Origin: a virus
Lineage: Duplodnaviria > Heunggongvirae > Uroviricota > Caudoviricetes
Direction: 5' to 3' (one strand)
DNA length: 52,473 nucleotides
IMG/VR virus record: IMGVR_UViG_2541047750_000003
Coordinates: 1-52,473 of that record
Part shown: positions 2,556 through 16,648 of the stretch, one piece after another
Layout: each line of letters begins with the position of its first letter
Position numbering within the stretch: position 1 is the stretch's first letter
Made by a program: the position numbers and the translations under genes
The notes under the pieces: model-generated
Seen by the model: only the letters and a program-made list of their open reading frames with translations
Told to the model about the DNA's origin: nothing
Databases searched by the model: none

Positions 2556-3977
2556 TTAAAAAGATGCGTTGCTCTGGCTGTTTCGTGGGGAGAATCGACT
2601 TGCCGCCGGACGTTGTTGCATTGACTGAATGCAAGCGGACGCCGCGCGGGCCTGGTCGCATGGGATGATGTTGCCGTTATCGTCAAACCGCTGGTAAACA
2701 GTCCCCGTTTTCCCGTGACGGTTTTTTGAAACGATGATCTCCATATATTCGCGGGCAACCGATTGTTCGTTGTAGTAGCCGTCGCGGTAGACCATGATGA
2801 TCCGGTCTGCGTCCTGTTCAAGATTACCGGAATCACGCAGATCAGAATTGTTCGGGCGCTTGTTCGGTCGTTCCTCAACGCGGCGAGATAATTGCGCCAG
2901 TGCCGCCACTGGCACGCGCAACTCTTTCGCCATCATTTTCAATGACCGCGACAATTGCCCTACGGCGAGATCATGACGTTCGGCCTTAGCCAGTTTCATT
3001 AACCCGATATAGTCAATCATCACCATCCCCAGGTTATGATGGTCCTGTTTCATCCGTTCGACGGTGGCGCGTATTTCCTCGACCGTTAACTGCGATGCGT
3101 CAACAATCCACACATCGAGATCGGCAAGGGCACTCATTCCCTGGGCGACGTGCGCCCAACCTTCGTCATCCAGTTTTACCGGATTACGTAGGCAATCCGT
3201 TGATAAGTTCCCAGCGCCAGCGATAGCACGTTCAGTCATCTGATCGAGCGACATTTCAAGCGTGAACAGCAAAACGCCGACCCGCTGACCTTCGCCTCCA
3301 GGGTATGGGCGTTCAGCCGCCGCGCGGGCAATTGCCAACGCCAACGCCGATTTACCAGACCCTGGGCGTCCGGCGATAAGCACCAGATCAGTAGCGTTAA
3401 TGCCGCCTAACATTTCGTCGAGTGGGTCAATCCCTGTTTTGATGTTGTCAGAGTTCACGCCACACTCCATGCGTTTACTTAACACTTCCGTGTATTCCTG
3501 GACCGCATCGCGCAACAGCACCGGGATAATTTGATCTTTTGTTACCTTTAATTTTGAATACCGGGAATCAAAATCTTTCATCGTCTCCCTGACGACTTCA
3601 AGCGTCCCTGTTTCCAGCTTGTAGCGAATGTCTTCCATTAGTTCCAGCATTTGCCGACGCTGGTGTTCTTCCTGTAGTAGTTGCGCATATCCTTTCAGGT
3701 TGGCAGCAGAAGGGCACGATCGTGCCGTTTGCATTAGCGGTACAAAGTTTTCATTGCCAATCTCATCGCCAACCAATAACGCGTCGATAAGATTTCTGTT
3801 TCTGGCTTGCGCCCGGATAACTTCAAACGCACGTTTATAAAGCGGGATCGTGAACACTTCAGGATCAAGTGTGGCGAGAACATCTTGCGCGTTAGGAGTA
3901 AGGCCACCTAACAGTAGCCCGCCGATAACTGACGCTTCACGTTCCTGCCGTAGTGAGTTTATTTGCTCAGTTACCAT
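2556..3977 (-). CDS. DnaB-like replicative DNA helicase
   Basis: 473 aa; Walker A GRPGSGKSALALAIA, DnaB-type N-terminal domain, RecA-like core; GGAGG RBS upstream of the ATG. Confidence 0.85.
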   Translation of the reverse strand: MVTEQINSLRQEREASVIGGLLLGGLTPNAQDVLATLDPEVFTIPLYKRAFEVIRAQARNRNLIDALLVGDEIGNENFVPLMQTARSCPSAANLKGYAQLLQEEHQRRQMLELMEDIRYKLETGTLEVVRETMKDFDSRYSKLKVTKDQIIPVLLRDAVQEYTEVLSKRMECGVNSDNIKTGIDPLDEMLGGINATDLVLIAGRPGSGKSALALAIARAAAERPYPGGEGQRVGVLLFTLEMSLDQMTERAIAGAGNLSTDCLRNPVKLDDEGWAHVAQGMSALADLDVWIVDASQLTVEEIRATVERMKQDHHNLGMVMIDYIGLMKLAKAERHDLAVGQLSRSLKMMAKELRVPVAALAQLSRRVEERPNKRPNNSDLRDSGNLEQDADRIIMVYRDGYYNEQSVAREYMEIIVSKNRHGKTGTVYQRFDDNGNIIPCDQARAASACIQSMQQRPAASRFSPRNSQSNASF

Positions 3978-3995
3978 TATGTTATTGCCTCCGGT

Positions 3996-5114
3996 TTACA
4001 AAATGGAATATTCAGAGTAATAAACAAAGCGCCCAATTTCCCCATGATCCGGGCTGTAAATAATCACCGCTGCCAGACGCCGCGACCGCCAGCCGCCATT
4101 AGTTGAATATGCGTCTTTGCCAGCTAATGTGCCGTGGTGCTCAACTATTCCAAGTGATGTTTCAACAACTGATTGATGGTGCAGATGTCCAGTGTGAGCG
4201 TAAACAGCCACAGACCTCCCGAAATCCTCCCGCCAGTCAGATACGCAAGCCGACAATAAATTTTCCGGCTTTTTGATAGTGTGCCCGTGGTGGTAAGCAA
4301 GGAATGTTTTGCCGTACTGTGTGTGGTGGACGATAGCAGGGGACACATCAACAGTTACGCGCGGTTCATCTTCGTAAAAAGCCGCCAGCGCCGCACGTAG
4401 CCAAATCATGCCAGACTGATCGTGATTGCCTGATAGTACCTGGATTTCAATATCCTTATGATTTAACAACATCTTTCCTACCGCCCGACGTACCGCTCGG
4501 ATCGCTACATAGACAAGTTTTGCATAGCGTGAATCGCAATCCAGTACGTGATTGCTTGATGGCGTAACTGGCAACAGCCCGTCAGTGTGAAGAACATCCC
4601 CACCGAGAAGCAAAACAGCTTTTTCAGACATCGGCGCAGCGCCCACCGCGTAGTCAAAGAATTCATTCAACACGCGTTCAGCGATCCCAGTGTCGTAGCT
4701 CTCGCCGCATTCAGCTTTATGAGCAAGCGCCCCGATATGCAGATCAAATACCGGATAAAGGGCCAGGCTTTTTTGAAAATCAATTTCAGGCACTGGCACG
4801 GCCTCCGCGCGTGGTATTTCTTCCGTGAATGCGTCGCGGGCAGCTTCCATTAGCCTTTCCATTTCATCACGGTCACGGGCAGTTTTAATCCAGCGCATGA
4901 CCGTATTACCAGCCTTATCGACAAGAACAGATTCACCAGTAACGCCAAAACCAGGCGCGCGACGCGTTGATATTAAACCGCGTTTCGCCAGTTTTGCGCC
5001 TAGCCGCTCGACGTTGCGTTTTGACATGCCATATTTTTCAGCGATCTGCTTGTACGTTAAACCGTTGTTATATTCAGCGATCAATTGCTCATCGCTGATT
5101 TTTCTTTGCGACAT
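3996..5114 (-). CDS. HTH domain fused to calcineurin-like metallophosphoesterase (372 aa)
   Basis: N-terminal HTH (LTYKQIAEKYGMSKRNVERL); ordered phosphoesterase motifs DLHIG, GGDVLH, GNHD, GHLHH; GAGGAA RBS; sits where a helicase loader or O/P-type protein would be. Confidence 0.6.
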   Translation of the reverse strand: MSQRKISDEQLIAEYNNGLTYKQIAEKYGMSKRNVERLGAKLAKRGLISTRRAPGFGVTGESVLVDKAGNTVMRWIKTARDRDEMERLMEAARDAFTEEIPRAEAVPVPEIDFQKSLALYPVFDLHIGALAHKAECGESYDTGIAERVLNEFFDYAVGAAPMSEKAVLLLGGDVLHTDGLLPVTPSSNHVLDCDSRYAKLVYVAIRAVRRAVGKMLLNHKDIEIQVLSGNHDQSGMIWLRAALAAFYEDEPRVTVDVSPAIVHHTQYGKTFLAYHHGHTIKKPENLLSACVSDWREDFGRSVAVYAHTGHLHHQSVVETSLGIVEHHGTLAGKDAYSTNGGWRSRRLAAVIIYSPDHGEIGRFVYYSEYSIL

Positions 5115-6445: not shown

Positions 6446-7498
6446 TCAAAGAACGCCAGCGCGCGTATCACGTAGCGTTTTTGGTTTAAGCAGGAAATCA
6501 AGTGTCGCGGTGAAGCCATCGCCGAAGTAAAAATCTGAAGCCGTGTTTTTGAACGTTTCGAAGTAGGCGACAAAGCCGTTAATGCTTTTGTCTTTCAGGT
6601 AGTCAGTGAACGCATAGATCTTGCGTTCAAGATCCCGATCCAGTTCGGCAGGTGGTAACAGGCCGTCAAACGTGCTGTTAAATGCTTCCACCACGTCGGC
6701 AGCGTTTACAGTGGCTGACAGTTTGCGCCATTGTTCAGCATCAGTCAGATACCCATCAAATTTAGTTACCCGGCAAATGTTGATAGGCTTAGGTACTCCA
6801 CCACGGCTACGCCATTGGGTTAAAGCCCACTCAATTACTAACGTGATCTCATTCTCCGTATACGCTTTACGTGTTTTTGTTTCTGTCAGTAGTTCTACGA
6901 ATGGCTTAGCATCACGACATTTGCATCCTGCCTTGTCGTTGTAGAAGGCAAGGCAACGCAATGCCGCTTCGTTTACGCCATCCTGATTGACCATTTTTTG
7001 TTCATTTTCGACAATACACGAAGTGTATATATCTTTTTCTCTTTCTTTTTCTACTTCTAATTCTAATTCATGACCCTTTCCTGACCCGGTCATGACCCTA
7101 TCATGACCTTTTTGTGTTGGATTGATTAACTTTTCTAATTTTAATTGCTCCTTCGCTGTGTTTATGGCGGCCCTGTAAGCGCTTTTAGAAGTCATTGATT
7201 GGTCCAGCCTTTTCAATAACTTTAAACAAGTTATGTGGCCTTGAGAACATTCAAACAAACCAATTTCGATGAAGTATTTCATCATTTCTTCTATACGTTT
7301 TTCAGTAGATCCGACGTTTCGAGCAATGATTCTCGCGTCATGTCGTAGGTCAAAAGTCAGATTGTGCTGATCTACGTCATAAGTTATTAGTTCGAGGCAA
7401 TACCAATAAAGCCCGTACCCTTCCAGGCCATAATCTAACAAAACGTTTTGAAGTTTTTCATCGCGGTTCGCATCGCTGTCATGCTTAAACCACTTCAT
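6446..7498 (-). CDS. replication initiator / replisome-organizer-like protein (350 aa)
   Basis: N-terminus MKWFKHDSDANRDEKL and C-terminal FYFGDGF...LLKPKTL region resemble conserved phage replication-protein termini as recalled; GGAGGG RBS; first large gene of the replication operon. Confidence 0.5.
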   Translation of the reverse strand: MKWFKHDSDANRDEKLQNVLLDYGLEGYGLYWYCLELITYDVDQHNLTFDLRHDARIIARNVGSTEKRIEEMMKYFIEIGLFECSQGHITCLKLLKRLDQSMTSKSAYRAAINTAKEQLKLEKLINPTQKGHDRVMTGSGKGHELELEVEKEREKDIYTSCIVENEQKMVNQDGVNEAALRCLAFYNDKAGCKCRDAKPFVELLTETKTRKAYTENEITLVIEWALTQWRSRGGVPKPINICRVTKFDGYLTDAEQWRKLSATVNAADVVEAFNSTFDGLLPPAELDRDLERKIYAFTDYLKDKSINGFVAYFETFKNTASDFYFGDGFTATLDFLLKPKTLRDTRAGVL

Positions 7499-7501
7499 AG
7501 A

Positions 7502-7759
7502 TCATCCCTCCGGCAACATCACTACATAGACATCACTGAATGCATCAAGACGACAAACAAATCCTTTATCCATTAACGCGGCGAAGGCATCATGTACCGT
7601 ATGAACAGGAAGTTCACACATTGCGGCTACTTCTTTGCGTGATGCATCATGTACCCGTCCTTTGTTATCTGCCTTTTCAGCCAGAGCCATTAAGACAAGT
7701 TTTTGAATCGGGCTATTAAGTTTTACGTTCCATGCTTTACTAATCATGTTTATACTCAT
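7502..7759 (-). CDS. Cro-position HTH DNA-binding protein (85 aa)
   Basis: Start refined to the ATG after the AGGAG RBS (track ORF 7502..7837); divergent from cI; KLVLMALAEKADNKG...HDASRKEVAAMCELPVHTV looks like a winged HTH. Confidence 0.5.
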   Translation of the reverse strand: MSINMISKAWNVKLNSPIQKLVLMALAEKADNKGRVHDASRKEVAAMCELPVHTVHDAFAALMDKGFVCRLDAFSDVYVVMLPEG

Positions 7760-8064
7760 CGCATTTTCTCCTATGGTTAGAGTGAACGCGCGGGCGGGCA
7801 TCCCATTAGCATTAGATAGCAGTGACTGACCGCTCAACAGATCCCGCCGTTGCGTGATATTTGTTTTTCGCTTCGCAGCGACACCGGATTTTTAAAGAGC
7901 ATAAGGTAAGTGCCTTTTTGTGCCTTCCGTTATCTTTTTCCTTGCGTCTTTGCAAGTATGGCCTTACCTTGTCTGCAAGTTTACAAAATGGAATTTTAAA
8001 ATCAAGGCTTAAAATACACGTTTTGTGACTTGCATCAAACTTTTTGAGGTTATAGGGTAGCGAC
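7760..8064. promoter_or_regulatory. divergent immunity control region between cI and the minus-strand early operon
   Basis: 305-nt gap between divergent genes; contains TTTACAAAATGGA (7980-7992) and inverted AAGGTAAG/CTTACCTT arms; promoters and operators not resolved. Confidence 0.45.
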
Positions 8065-8712
8065 ATGAAAACAAAATGGTATGACTTAGCAAAGCAGCTC
8101 ATGCGGGCGCAGGGCATGAGCCAGGATTCGCTCGCGGATCGTATGGGGATAACTAAAGGCGGCCTGTCACACTGGCTGAACGGTCGCCGAGAGCCAAATC
8201 TTGAAGATATTGCGCGGATTATGCGCGAGCTTGGTCGTCGGCAGTTTACTGTTACACATGATGGCATGGTCATTGATGATTCTGTTTCTAATACACTTCA
8301 GGCCGTGCCGCCGCGTGATTTAGGTAGTTACCCGGTTATTGACTGGAAGGACACAGTAAACAATATGGATGACGCAAGGCGTTCAGCATTACGACACGTT
8401 ACGACTAGCGTTATTTGTTCAGATGACAGTTACTGGCTGGTTGCCAAAGGTGAATCAATGAACGCGCCGCAGGGGTTGAGCATCCCGGCGGGGACGATGA
8501 TACTTGTGGACCCGCACGCGCCAGCTATTGACGGCAAACTGGTTATAGCCCAGCTTGAGGAAGGGCAGATACCGACGTTTAAACAGTTGATTATTGATGG
8601 AGGTCAAAGGCTTTTACGTTCGCTCAATCCGCTGTATCCGCCAATCCCTATGAATCCAGAATCAAAAATTATAGGCGTGGTGGTTGATGCGAAGATCGTA
8701 AACCTGCCATAA
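8065..8712 (+). CDS. cI: cI-type repressor (HTH plus LexA-like S24 peptidase domain)
   Basis: 215 aa; N-terminal HTH (QDSLADRMGITKGGLSHWLNGRR); C-terminal autocleavage domain with Ser in LVAKGESMNAP and Lys in PTFKQL. Confidence 0.85.
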   Translation: MKTKWYDLAKQLMRAQGMSQDSLADRMGITKGGLSHWLNGRREPNLEDIARIMRELGRRQFTVTHDGMVIDDSVSNTLQAVPPRDLGSYPVIDWKDTVNNMDDARRSALRHVTTSVICSDDSYWLVAKGESMNAPQGLSIPAGTMILVDPHAPAIDGKLVIAQLEEGQIPTFKQLIIDGGQRLLRSLNPLYPPIPMNPESKIIGVVVDAKIVNLP

Positions 8713-8717
8713 ACATT

Positions 8718-8742
8718 AGCCGCCGAATGGCGGCTTTTCTTT
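8718..8742 (+). terminator. intrinsic terminator after cI
   Basis: Hairpin agccgcc-gaat-ggcggct followed by TTTTCTTT. Confidence 0.45.
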
Positions 8743-8835
8743 GCCTGGAAAACACCAAAACGTAAACAGAAAACGTTATTTATTATTTAAATATCAATGG
8801 CATATAAAATATTTTAAAAAAGTATACAAAATGGA

Positions 8836-8864
8836 TTGACTCGATGTTTTACGGGGCGTATATT
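8836..8864 (+). promoter_or_regulatory. sigma70-like promoter (pL-equivalent)
   Basis: TTGACT, 17-nt spacer, TATATT; TACAAAATGGA motif abuts the -35. Confidence 0.5.
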
Positions 8865-9118
8865 GCGAGTCAAAGGAAGGGCGCAGGTAACAAAAGCAAC
8901 TTCCTGGCACTTTAAAAATCAGGCTTAACACCTTGTCAACCGTGGAGTAACTCCCCGATGGGGGACCGAAAGCGGCACTGATAACAAGGCGCATGGGGTG
9001 TTTAAAGCGTTACATCCCCCACGAAACCGCACGCAAGGCGACGAGTCAGCTTGCTTGGAGTGAGCAAGGTCACGCCGGGAACGGCGATGATTGCGGGATT
9101 AGTTGAAAGATGTTAAGC

Positions 9119-9156
9119 CGCTCATTAACAATCTGGTCAGCCGCTGGAAGTGCGGC
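9119..9156 (+). promoter_or_regulatory. candidate nutL (boxA-like plus boxB-like hairpin)
   Basis: CGCTCATTA (8/9 to boxA CGCTCTTTA) then 12 nt then hairpin GCCGC-TGGAAGT-GCGGC, 56 nt upstream of the N-like gene. Confidence 0.35.
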
Positions 9157-9212
9157 AATTAACGAAGATGATTTTTTATTAAGTATCATCAAGGATATAC
9201 GGAGATCAGATT

Positions 9213-9503
9213 ATGAGCGTTACAATTATATATGGTAAATGTGATAGCAAAATGAATGCCAGGGAACGCAGAAGGATAAAAAGAGAAAACGAAAGAAAAT
9301 CATCACCTGCAATCAATAAAACAGACAATGTGGATAAAGCTATTCGATTTGCAAACGAGGAAAGATGCAAACCAAATAGCATTAAAGAACGTCGCAAAGG
9401 ATCAGTAAAATGGTATACGGAAAATGAAAGCGGCAGCTACTACCACGCAACGCAACCACGCCATTTAGGGGAAAAACCCCTGGATAAAGTCCGCTACCAT
9501 TAA
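9213..9503 (+). CDS. N: N-type transcription antiterminator (arginine-rich motif)
   Basis: 96 aa; MSVTIIYGKCDSKMNARERRRIKRENERK resembles the recalled P22 N (gene 24) N-terminus and ARM; first gene after promoter and leader. Confidence 0.65.
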   Translation: MSVTIIYGKCDSKMNARERRRIKRENERKSSPAINKTDNVDKAIRFANEERCKPNSIKERRKGSVKWYTENESGSYYHATQPRHLGEKPLDKVRYH

Positions 9504-9649
9504 TACAAAATGTAAACATCCGGAGATGACATTATGGTTATTCAGGCGCTTCAATTCAAACTGGCAGTAGCGGAAATGCTTCACGATGCCGAAATGTGGA
9601 GCGCCGCGAATAAAGCCTTATACATAGTGTTAACAGCACGGGAGATTAA

Positions 9650-10294
9650 ATGGTGAAAACAGAGTTACATAAAAAGCTATGGACGATTCAGCAAACGCTG
9701 AACGCGCCGAAAAATCAGCGTAATAATTTTGGTGGATATAATTACAGGTCGGCGGAGGATATTTTAGAGGCGGTTAAACCACTGCTTCAAAATATCACGC
9801 TGACTGTTAGTGATGAAATTGTCCTGATCGGCAATCGCTATTATGTGAAAGCAACGGCGACGCTAAGCGACGGTGAAGACGTAATAGCGGTAACTGCTTA
9901 TGCCAGGGAGGAAGAAAACAAGAAGGGTATGGACGCCAGCCAGCTAACAGGAGCAACATCAAGTTACGCGCGTAAATATGCTTTGAACGGTTTATTCTGT
10001 ATAGATGATGCTCGCGATCCTGATACTGATGCTTACGCGAAGCAGACAGGCCAGCAGCCGCGACAACAGAAAAACCCACCAAAACAACAACCGCAGCAGA
10101 AGAAAGCGCCGCCAAATCCTGATGAAGTATTAGCACGTTTCTGTGATGCAGCAGCGAAAGCGCAGGACGCTAACAAGCTGCGTGAAATATTTGGCAAATG
10201 CTGGAAATTACTACCGGAAGGATCGGAACATCGAATCAAGGCAAAAGATGTTTATGACATCCGGGTCGCAGAGCTTAACGGGGAGATGGGTTAA
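9650..10294 (+). CDS. erf: ERF-family single-strand annealing protein
   Basis: 214 aa; LNAPKNQRNNFGGYNYRSAEDILEAVKPLL...IVLIGNRYYVKATATLSDGE...AREEENKKGMDASQLTGATSSYARKYALNGLF matches recalled P22 Erf. Confidence 0.9.
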   Translation: MVKTELHKKLWTIQQTLNAPKNQRNNFGGYNYRSAEDILEAVKPLLQNITLTVSDEIVLIGNRYYVKATATLSDGEDVIAVTAYAREEENKKGMDASQLTGATSSYARKYALNGLFCIDDARDPDTDAYAKQTGQQPRQQKNPPKQQPQQKKAPPNPDEVLARFCDAAAKAQDANKLREIFGKCWKLLPEGSEHRIKAKDVYDIRVAELNGEMG

Positions 10295-10713
10295 TGAGTT
10301 TGAATTCAATTACGCTGGGCGGGAATATCGGAAACGACATGGAAGTTCGCTACACGCAAAACGGTAAAGCGATTGGTAGTTTTCCGTTAGCTGTAACGAA
10401 TGGCTACGGTGATAACAAGCGGACAATGTGGATCACTTGCCTGGTATTTGGTGAGCGTGCGGAAAAATTAGCGCCACATATCCGCAAGGGTGGAAAAATA
10501 GTGGTAAGCGGTCGCCTGGATGTTCGGCAATATGACCGGAACGACGGCACGAAGGGGACTGCGGTAGAAGTGGCGGTTAATGAATTTGAATTCATGAATG
10601 TTAACCAACAAGGCCAGCAGCAAGGACAGCAGCAGAAAGCGCCGCCGCAGCAGCAGAATAATAACGGGAATAATCCGCCTCCGATGGACTTCGACGACGA
10701 TATTCCTTTTTAG
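10294..10713 (+). CDS. ssb: single-stranded DNA-binding protein
   Basis: 139 aa; OB-fold N-terminus, Gln/Pro-rich linker, acidic tail MDFDDDIPF. Confidence 0.9.
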   Translation: MSLNSITLGGNIGNDMEVRYTQNGKAIGSFPLAVTNGYGDNKRTMWITCLVFGERAEKLAPHIRKGGKIVVSGRLDVRQYDRNDGTKGTAVEVAVNEFEFMNVNQQGQQQGQQQKAPPQQQNNNGNNPPPMDFDDDIPF

Positions 10714-13521: not shown

Positions 13522-13714
13522 ACATTACATGGAATGGAAAATTCCAGAAGCAGCAACAAAGGCAGCGCCAGGAAATTTTTCTGGCGTTTATTTTTATATG
13601 GATGGCAAATGGTATTTCGGCAGCAGGCCGGATCACTACTATCAAGAAATATGCAAGCCTCACGTATGGGATATTAAAGAGCGCGTGAAAGGCGGGGTAA
13701 TTGAGGACGTTTAA
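13511..13714 (+). CDS. hypothetical early protein (67 aa)
   Basis: ORF in operon. Confidence 0.35.
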   Translation: MKFKHYMEWKIPEAATKAAPGNFSGVYFYMDGKWYFGSRPDHYYQEICKPHVWDIKERVKGGVIEDV

Positions 13715-16489: not shown

Positions 16490-16511
16490 AGTTTACAAAA
16501 TGGCGTCATTG

Positions 16512-16527: not shown

Positions 16528-16648
16528 TAATGGCGCTTTGCACCTTGTTAGCACGTATCCATTTTGTATACTTCAAGCAAACAAAATGCTCTTTAAAAAT
16601 CCGGCAGCGCTGAAATGCGTAGAAATCACCTGAAAAGGAGAGAGCATT

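Follow-up and report, generated by a model that had tools for sequence, protein, structure and literature searches.

The locus and its phage

The 52,473-nucleotide (nt) stretch of viral DNA analysed here (IMG/VR record IMGVR_UViG_2541047750_000003, positions 1 to 52,473; "the window" below) carries, downstream of a repressor gene, a rightward promoter, a long leader, a nut site (nutR1) and the small gene gp17. An earlier note had proposed a strong promoter at this place, followed by a leader poor in open reading frames (ORFs), nut-like elements and an N-like gene. This locus is very probably the rightward early control module (promoter, leader, nutR1 and the N-like gp17) of a mEp021-like phage. 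The promoter-nutR1-Gp17 system is already known, having been described for mEp021 and its group, which the earlier note had missed; what is apparently new is the existence of two forms of the leader, the conserved module with a second boxA-like sequence (boxA') that distinguishes them, and the probable tetraloop nature of boxB. The gene order is repressor, terminator, promoter with leader and nutR1, a 96-amino-acid (aa) ORF (gp17), a Kil-like 40-aa ORF, Erf and single-stranded DNA-binding protein (SSB), and the central features are as follows.

8065-8712, rightward: LexA/cI-type repressor gene (HTH_3 and Peptidase_S24)
8718-8735: intrinsic terminator hairpin directly after the repressor gene; 7 pairs, 6 of them G-C, with a T-run on the + strand
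8836-8864, + strand: sigma-70 early promoter TTGACT-N17-TATATT, matching 10 of 12 consensus positions
8871-9212, + strand: untranslated leader of the gp17 operon, long form, about 342 nt
8906-9118, + strand: optional leader module of 213 nt, structured and non-coding
9119-9127, + strand: nutR1 boxA CGCTCATTA (RNA CGCUCAUUA)
up to 9139, + strand: nutR1 spacer ACAAUCUGGUCA (boxA and spacer together 9119-9139)
9140-9156, + strand: nutR1 boxB GCCGC-UGGAAGU-GCGGC, with a 5-base-pair stem, 12 nt after boxA
9213-9503, + strand: gp17, 96-aa N-like antiterminator

In the phage collection, 821 bases around nutR1 match seven cultured coliphages and nothing further. The closest relative at the locus is MagusPhagus (99.5% identity), followed by mEp010 (96.8%), mEp515 (95.6%) and mEp021 (93.8%), while mEp013, mEp044 and mEp554 match in two pieces. 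The window is evidently a temperate coliphage of the mEp021 group (mEpimmI), whose members are Nus-dependent and non-lambdoid (PMC11893012).

Three nut sites

In mEp021, Gp17 works at three nut sites: nutL is upstream of the repressor gene, nutR1 lies upstream of gp17, and nutR2 comes downstream of a gene for a cytosine methyltransferase (PMC11893012). The window has three sites in exactly those places; its nutR1 sequence is that of mEp021, and its nutR2, checked against the mEp021 record, lies between the homologue of the methyltransferase gene and the next ORF (NinF in the mEp021 annotation). The other two sites read as follows.

7865-7901, - strand: nutL UGCUCUUUA-AAAAUCCGGUG-UCGC-UGCGAA-GCGA, on the leftward early transcript
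16587-16623, + strand: nutR2 UGCUCUUUA-AAAAUCCGGCA-GCGC-UGAAAU-GCGU

The 17-nt boxA-spacer pattern GCTCWTTAAMAATCYGG has three exact matches in the 52 kb and one with two mismatches, against an expectation of 0.08. A nut covariance model scores nutL at 53.7, nutR2 at 51.9 and nutR1 at 48.6 bits, which follows by construction, as the model was built from variants of the same three sites; its informative outcome is that nothing else in the 52 kb exceeds 14 bits. Each of the three sites has a promoter-like site upstream, the leftward one read by hand. The boxA-like sequence and the hairpin of nutR1 are present exactly as the earlier note described them, and the site ends 56 nt before gp17. Its boxA, CGCUCAUUA, equals the rrn boxA UGCUCUUUA at seven of nine positions and is close to the consensus of rrn and of lambda (CGCUCUUA), both taken from PMC2724277; relatives carry UGCUCUUUA or CGCUCUUUA at the same place. 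From its position, its identity to the mEp021 sequence and the shared design, we infer that 9119-9156 is the published nutR1. Valencia-Toxqui et al. reportedly demonstrated in 2023 readthrough at the three mEp021 sites, using green fluorescent protein (GFP) reporters and a gp17 deletion phage. Antitermination at these sites is described as both Gp17-dependent and Nus-dependent, and the function of mEp021 Gp17 as experimentally established (PMC11893012, citing Valencia-Toxqui et al. 2023, Arch Virol 168:92).

Covariation and loop type of boxB

The 7-nt loop of nutR1 had left the choice between a variant nut site and a different RNA element, and comparison of the three sites across relatives points to the former. 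The stems found are GCCGC/GCGGC, GCUAC/GUAGC, UCGC/GCGA, GCAC/GUGC, GCGC/GCGU and ACGC/GCGU, and the loops UGGAAGU, UGAAAU, UGAAAA, UGCGAA, UGCAAU and UGCGAU. At nutR1, relatives carry GCUAC-UGAAAU-GUAGC, UCGC-UGAAAU-GCGA, GCAC-UGAAAA-GUGC and GCAC-UGAAAU-GUGC; at nutL and nutR2 their variants include the stem ACGC...GCGU and the loops UGCAAU and UGCGAU. Distant Gp17 homologues (60-80% identity), traced to their contigs, added new boxB variants and gave no new kind of leader. Across the 11 distinct boxB sequences, 87% of cells are paired and 12 carry double changes; four of the five stem pairs have changed on both sides, the covariation score was reached by none of 500 shuffles, and sliding the partner by one to three columns yields no double changes. 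The stem is therefore selected as a stem.

Every loop reads U-GNRA-N, that of nutR1 in the window with one extra base. At 6-7 nt, none is the canonical purine-rich pentaloop (GAAAA in lambda, GACAA in P22). The boxB loops of lambda and P22 are pentaloops that mimic a GNRA fold with one base flipped out; those of the window and its relatives would instead be true GNRA tetraloops (GAAA, GCGA, GGAA) closed by U-A, U.U or U.G. The 7-nt loop is evidently a variant boxB, not a different element.

Gp17, the N-like antiterminator

The product of the 96-aa ORF has an arginine-rich motif, NARERRRIKRENERK, at residues 15-29, with arginines at 17, 19, 20, 21 and 24, positions at which arginine is conserved (PMC11893012). 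It matches PHROG 271, "anti-termination protein N-like" (E = 1.3e-13), and over its first 25 residues it aligns with P22-type N (MSVTIIYGKCDSKMNARERR versus MTVITYGKSTFAGNAKTRR; 10 of 20 identical, E = 0.017 in a single comparison). As is typical of N-type proteins, it is small and basic, with the motif near its N-terminus and its gene just downstream of a nut site. The ORF at 9213 encodes Gp17, the N-like antiterminator that the earlier note had supposed; no relatives of it were found in species-representative genomes.

A second class of Gp17 (L007, L008, L059, L082 and L101-L103) has the arginine-rich motif NARKRRRMKRAAEQ and always occurs with the boxB GCUAC-UGAAAU-GUAGC and an alternative form of the leader hairpin at 9050-9068 (see below). 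In L007, the sole genome of this class checked, nutL retains the common boxB. Co-adaptation may link the changes in motif, boxB and hairpin, or they may simply lie close together.

The start of gp17 may itself contact the nut site. The segment GAUCAGAUU (9204-9212, + strand), between the Shine-Dalgarno sequence (GGAG, 9201-9204) and the AUG, is predicted to pair with AAUCUGGUC of the spacer (9130-9138), and boxA GCUCAU is able to pair with AUGAGC, so that the whole predicted contact joins 9120-9138 with 9204-9218; the AAUCUGGUC/GAUCAGAUU helix has a shuffle p of 0.045. In two other lineages (the equivalents in L007 and L099), boxA is predicted to pair with the Shine-Dalgarno sequence instead. 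The helices of the three lineages are only modestly unusual (p = 0.045, 0.029 and 0.008) and none covaries. Such pairing could couple occupancy of the nut site to translation of gp17, or autoregulate the N-like gene. This would be reminiscent of the autoregulation of lambda N.

The early promoter and a candidate operator

The best promoter-like site within 7400-10000 is TTGACT-N17-TATATT at 8836-8864, the strong promoter of the earlier note. Across 52 related loci, namely the window together with six cultured phages, four E. coli prophages and 41 IMG/VR contigs, neither hexamer varies and the spacing stays at 17 nt, while the spacer sequence differs at up to five of its 17 positions, the pattern expected of a working promoter. 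Transcription would start near 8871. The terminator at 8718-8735, also annotated as such in mEp021 and mEp010 among others, keeps the repressor transcript apart from this promoter. Two further promoter-like sites belong to the other nut sites.

about 7986-8013, - strand: leftward promoter TTGATT-N16-TAAACT, read by hand and not reported by the promoter scan
16545-16572: promoter-like site TTGTTA-N16-TATACT, about 15 nt upstream of the nutR2 boxA

With the latter, nutR2 may have a promoter of its own rather than depend only on readthrough from the promoter at 8836.

The motif CCATTTTGTATAC (8822-8834, - strand), which abuts the -35 hexamer, is a candidate operator or regulator site, and an alignment of the window with six cultured phages (seven sequences in all) shows no variation around it. 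The 13-mer CCATTTTGTAWAC is over-represented in the window, with 21 matches at up to two mismatches against four expected, and occurs at 3994-4006 (-), 7979-7991 (-), 8822-8834 (-), 16491-16503 (-) and 16559-16571 (+). Exact copies lie at all three early promoter regions, those at 7979-7991 and 16559-16571 overlapping the -10 hexamer of, respectively, the leftward promoter and the one before nutR2. CCATTTTGTAWAC is a candidate operator of the repressor Rep021, whose operators are treated as unknown in PMC11893012.

Long and short forms of the leader

Alignment of relatives shows two leader forms, in which the -10 hexamer and the AUG are about 348 nt (long) or about 135 nt (short) apart. The difference is a single block of 213 nt, 8906-9118 of the window, that ends exactly at the 5' edge of boxA. 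About three quarters of the relatives, the window included, carry it.

Cultured phages: 4 long, 3 short
IMG/VR contigs: 34 long, 10 short
Complete E. coli genomes carrying gp17: 31 long, 4 others whose form was not examined

The earlier note had suggested checks by folding and against Rfam. The leader folds better than shuffled sequences (z = -3.6). The Rfam check brought up no known family over the part from promoter to boxA: with 7500-10500 and the leader alone as queries, Rfam 15 has nothing over 8871-9139 at E <= 10, and the sole match in the leader is at chance level, over the boxB hairpin at 9140-9164 (13.6 bits against a gathering threshold of 39, E = 9.6). ARAGORN found no transfer RNA or transfer-messenger RNA. 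Two hairpins lie outside both the 213-nt block and nutR1.

8874-8905, + strand: 5' hairpin AGGAAG...CUUCCU, its purine-rich loop variable and its 5 pairs retained in 22 sequences
9167-9190, + strand: hairpin GAUGAU-N12-AUCAUC, between boxB and the ribosome-binding site

The second is absent in two lineages and hence dispensable. The first 35 or so nt of the transcript (8871-8905) are purine-rich (CAAAGGAAGG...), as are their equivalents in short leaders, and the CAAAGGAAGG stretch resembles what lies upstream of boxA at nutL in the leftward transcript (AAGGCACAAAAAGGCACUUACCUUA-UGCUCUUUA). An AAGGAGG is present in the short form, away from any start codon.

The 213-nt module

The hairpin-capable segments CCCCGATGGGGG and CTTGCTTGGAGTGAGCAAG of the earlier note are present as it described them; it had not seen that they belong to a discrete module with a second boxA-like sequence.

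8906-8923, + strand: boxA' and spacer GGCACTTTAAAAATCAGG, the first 18 nt of the module
8922-8940, + strand: 5' arm of the closing helix and imperfect terminal inverted repeat, GGCTTAACACCTTGTCAAC, pairing with 9101-9119
8953-8964: segment CCCCGATGGGGG
8993-9106, + strand: 37-codon ORF ("gp16" of mEp021), judged not protein-coding
9050-9068, + strand: hairpin CUUGCU-UGGAGUG-AGCAAG (CTTGCTTGGAGTGAGCAAG), the only module helix with covariation
9101-9119, + strand: 3' arm of the closing helix, GTTGAAAGATGTTAAGCC, abutting boxA

The module opens with GGCACUUUAAAAAUCAGG, a second boxA-plus-spacer look-alike, which is the fourth match to the boxA-spacer pattern in the window and the fourth-best match to the nut covariance model (14 bits, E = 0.05), and which has no boxB. 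The order along the leader is hairpin, boxA', domain, boxA and boxB. Minimum-energy and alignment folds agree on a closed multi-branch domain; of the 9 + 5 pairs of its closing helix, the nine are invariant and one of the five is broken in a single sequence, so that the helix is uninformative as to covariation. The hairpin at 9050-9068 reads AUCACU-UGGAUUG-AGUGGU in six of 22 aligned sequences, with three compensatory pairs and one wobble, and in the most divergent class of modules eight of the 11 differences fall inside it with pairing preserved. Duplex energies for possible partners of this hairpin are no better than those of shuffled sequences.

The module is the most conserved stretch of its neighbourhood, with 94.8-98.6% identity in lineages whose flanks are 64-97% identical; in the same lineages the repressor gene is at 89-91%, the promoter at 83%, the 5' leader at 85-93% and the arginine-rich half of gp17 at 64-92%. 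In 31 E. coli genomes it is present once per genome (blastn). Every IMG/VR copy, searched for with three patterns, falls in one set of 34 contigs; retrieval via gp17 also yielded 32 of these, and the other two proved to be the same locus. A block pattern gave 11 true matches in metagenomes, 98-100% identical and in the same promoter-module-nutR1 context, and eight chance matches, while a 17-mer of the module gave only chance matches in unrelated organisms among species-representative genomes. Neither a divergent homologue nor another context was found in phages, E. coli genomes, IMG/VR, species-representative genomes or metagenomes, and the window contains no paralogue beyond the boxA' similarity. 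Since short-leader phages lack the module, it is not required for antitermination as such; most likely it is a cis-acting structured RNA under strong selection.

How the locus may work

On the reading that we prefer, an early control module of the mEp021 type, the strong sigma-70 promoter downstream of the repressor terminator would produce an RNA that presents nutR1 (boxA at 9119, spacer, boxB at 9140-9156) late in the 342-nt untranslated leader. The arginine-rich motif of Gp17 would bind the boxB hairpin, its loop taken as a GNRA tetraloop flanked by U and N; host NusB/NusE would sit on boxA and NusA on the spacer; and the complex would ride RNA polymerase through downstream terminators such as that at 13564-13588, and likewise from nutL and nutR2. 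The first 250 nt of the leader would be dispensable for this mechanism, since relatives lack 213 nt of it. The locus would be the functional equivalent of pL-nutL-N of lambda. The anatomy, the three-site family, the conservation of the promoter, the covariation of boxB and the N-like nature of Gp17 were established in the present analysis; Gp17- and Nus-dependent antitermination comes from the literature, and the interpretation of the loops as GNRA and the roles assigned to the individual Nus factors are our proposals.

Several points weigh against this account. Gp17 has no similarity to lambda N detectable by BLAST, tblastn or in the PDB, and at 15.9 bits it falls below the cut-off of 27.9 of the Pfam family N_peptide (PF25694). 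The nutR1 boxA of the window departs from the consensus at two positions (C1 and A6), and the 7-nt loop UGGAAGU fits a GNRA fold only with U.G closing GGAA and a bulged U. The equation of 9119-9156 with the published nutR1, probable as it appears, does not draw on a published nut sequence, and the supplements of PMC11893012 contain none. Almost all module pairs other than those of the hairpin at 9050-9068 are invariant and so uninformative, and the high conservation of the module could reflect recent spread by recombination, not function.

That last point leads to the view that the module is a passenger, either a MITE-like remnant (MITE, miniature inverted-repeat transposable element) or a recombination scar between two boxA-containing sequences, with no function of its own and a look of conservation that stems only from recent spread. 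Its presence/absence polymorphism with sharp ends would fit, as would the 19-nt imperfect terminal inverted repeats (8922-8940 and 9101-9119) that a MITE should have, the boxA-like direct repeats, identical at 13 of 17 positions, that flank it, and the very low diversity wherever it is found. A MITE, however, should occur in multiple copies and contexts, whereas the module is single-copy and found only at this locus of this phage group. In lineages with 10-36% divergence in its surroundings, the module has changed less than the neighbouring genes for the repressor and Gp17; its flanking repeats differ at four of 17 positions, unlike a fresh target duplication; and eight pairing-preserving differences out of 11 in one hairpin are hard to obtain without selection on RNA structure. 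Because of the single-copy status and the compensatory hairpin, we disfavour the passenger view and consider it unlikely.

We regard as distinctly improbable that the module, like the rrn leader or put, serves as a second element for antitermination or Nus loading, one independent of protein and acting before Gp17 is made, so that polymerase would get to gp17 and past it without N. Its first element is boxA-like and follows a hairpin, the boxB-boxA order of rrn, but boxA' has a mismatch in the core (U4>A). The 11-mer AAGCGGCACUG of the module is found unchanged in the E. coli rrnB leader, immediately 5' of boxA, and a shared word of at least 11 nt arose in only eight of 2000 dinucleotide shuffles, a comparison made after the match had been noticed; no significant overall similarity links the leader with the rrnB promoter-leader region (75 of 500 shuffles equal it), and Rfam offers no match. 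The rrn segment AGCGGCAC binds NusA in vitro (PMC2724277), but short-leader phages cope without the module. As an observation in its own right, the 11-mer AAGCGGCACTG, at 8969-8979 of the window and 355-365 of the rrnB leader (L123), spans the 3' arm of the rrn boxB and the first bases of boxA.

That the main content of the leader is the small protein gene gp16, placed like cro between pR and nutR of lambda, with the hairpins incidental, is very hard to credit: gp16 is annotated in mEp021, mEp010 and mEp515, has an uninterrupted 37-codon frame in all but one of 16 distinct module variants and is spared by all module indels, but it has about 12 non-synonymous to about 5 synonymous changes (hand count), has lost its stop codon in one relative (L047), has no convincing ribosome-binding site, no Pfam or PHROG match and no PGAP call in 31 E. 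coli genomes, and is entirely missing from a quarter of relatives. Five of its changes (L>I, A>T, S>I, Q>W and G>C) map to the hairpin at 9050-9068, and the nucleotide changes behind the three radical ones (Q>W, G>C and S>I) keep the base pairs. Purifying selection, a ribosome-binding site and homologues, the marks of a protein-coding gene, are all wanting. The other small ORFs that PHANOTATE calls in the leader cross homopolymer runs, and single-base insertions or deletions in these runs in relatives break every ORF that crosses them; PGAP annotates nothing under 8900-9120 in the 31 genomes. Given the substitution pattern of the ORF, the ORF-breaking indels and the silence of PGAP, the leader is non-coding. 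Of the earlier note's ORF-poor leader, the non-coding character holds, while a 37-codon ORF does exist and is not gene-like; neither of the findings that it had named as adverse was made, in that the boxB stem covaries and gp16 shows no coding constraint. The GenBank records of mEp021, mEp010, mEp515, mEp013 and mEp554 place up to three "hypothetical proteins", on both strands, within the leader or across the promoter (L001, mEp021, 3297-3410; L002, 2096-2519; L006, 1596-2019; L003/L004, 1637-1751); these are most likely over-calls.

To return to the module as a cis-acting RNA of the gp17 operon, its role can be proposed only tentatively. It is possible that it is an undescribed RNA of N-type antitermination operons that tunes the timing or amount of Gp17, which would work through Rho shielding, processing or Nus loading before nutR1. 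As a guess from its sequence, boxA' may recruit NusB/E early and so protect polymerase from Rho termination along an untranslated stretch exceeding 200 nt; as another, from the predicted fold, the domain may govern how stable the gp17 message is, how it is processed or how it is translated. If so, the natural long/short polymorphism marks two regulatory strategies within one phage group.

Neighbouring genes

The genes to either side of the locus are as follows.

6446-7498: replication protein, leftward replication operon
7502-7837: helix-turn-helix protein, leftward replication operon
9534-9656: Kil-like 40-aa ORF after gp17, with weak matches to Pfam Lambda_Kil (2e-4, below the cut-off) and PHROG 2055

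The Erf and SSB genes downstream were identified by Pfam in homologous loci. The operon of N-like gene, Kil-like ORF, erf and ssb parallels the pL operon of lambda, though the phage is classed as non-lambdoid.

Significance

By itself, the nutR1 finding matters little, as it re-identifies a published site in a close relative of a characterised phage. The text of PMC11893012, which calls nutR1 "more variable" and its loop "adenine-rich", contains no description of the two leader forms, of boxA' as a repeat, of the loops as GNRA or of the covariation of the stem. Three loops read as GNRA-type tetraloops in one genome (GGAA, GAAA and GCGA) stand against the GNRA-mimicking pentaloops of lambda and P22, and one arginine-rich motif apparently reads all three, which makes the phage a natural test of motif-RNA recognition. 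A leader that occurs in nature with and without the module likewise offers a ready-made comparison of long and short forms in the control of expression of an N-like protein.

Comparison with known systems

The nearest system is nutR1/Gp17 of mEp021, a phage of the same group with 93.8% DNA identity across the region, an identical nutR1, the same order of repressor, terminator, promoter, leader, gp17, Kil-like ORF, erf and ssb, the same three nut positions, and the same conserved arginines at 17, 19, 20 and 24 of Gp17; for nutR1 itself there is no material difference. The rrn operons of E. coli share shorter stretches. In short-leader relatives, UGCUCUUUAACAAU equals the rrn boxA and the start of its spacer over 14 nt (PMC2724277; rrnB sequence), the stem of the rrnB boxB is that of nutR1 in the window (GCCGC/GCGGC), and the 11-mer is common to the module, with overall similarity not significant. 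Antitermination in rrn needs no phage protein, and boxB there precedes boxA.

In lambda, processive Nus-dependent antitermination is likewise carried out by an arginine-rich-motif protein on boxA-boxB RNA, and N, like gp17, is first in its operon after a long untranslated leader. The lambda leader also controls translation of N, through an RNase III site and N autoregulation. The structured leader of lambda follows nutL, whereas that of the window precedes nutR1; lambda has two nut sites and the window three, the lambda boxB is a GAAAA/GAAGA pentaloop, and lambda N has no sequence similarity to Gp17. The lambda boxA, CGCUCUUA, has one U fewer (PMC2724277).

Gene 24 (N) of P22 shares with the locus the order promoter, boxA, spacer, boxB and N gene. 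The N-termini of the two proteins are alike (MTVITYGKSTFAGNAKTRRHERRRK in the window, MSVTIIYGKCDSKMNARERRRIKRE in P22-type N), and beyond them P22 N and Gp17 cannot be aligned. The P22-type nutL beside the N gene reads CGCUCUUUA-N11-GCGCUGACAAAGCGC; its boxA ends in CUUUA as in the window, and the boxB 5' half GCGCUGA is common to P22 and nutR2 of the window. The P22 boxB is a GACAA pentaloop closed by U-A, where the window has U-GNRA-N, with four loop bases or GGAA and a bulge, and P22 has about 150 nt between boxB and N, where the window has its extra RNA upstream of boxA. The comparison with nutL of lambda and P22 that the earlier note had called for places P22 nearer, with its pentaloop replaced by U-GNRA-N, and because of the N-terminal alignment and the P22-type nutL sequence, P22 is the closest classical relative of the system.

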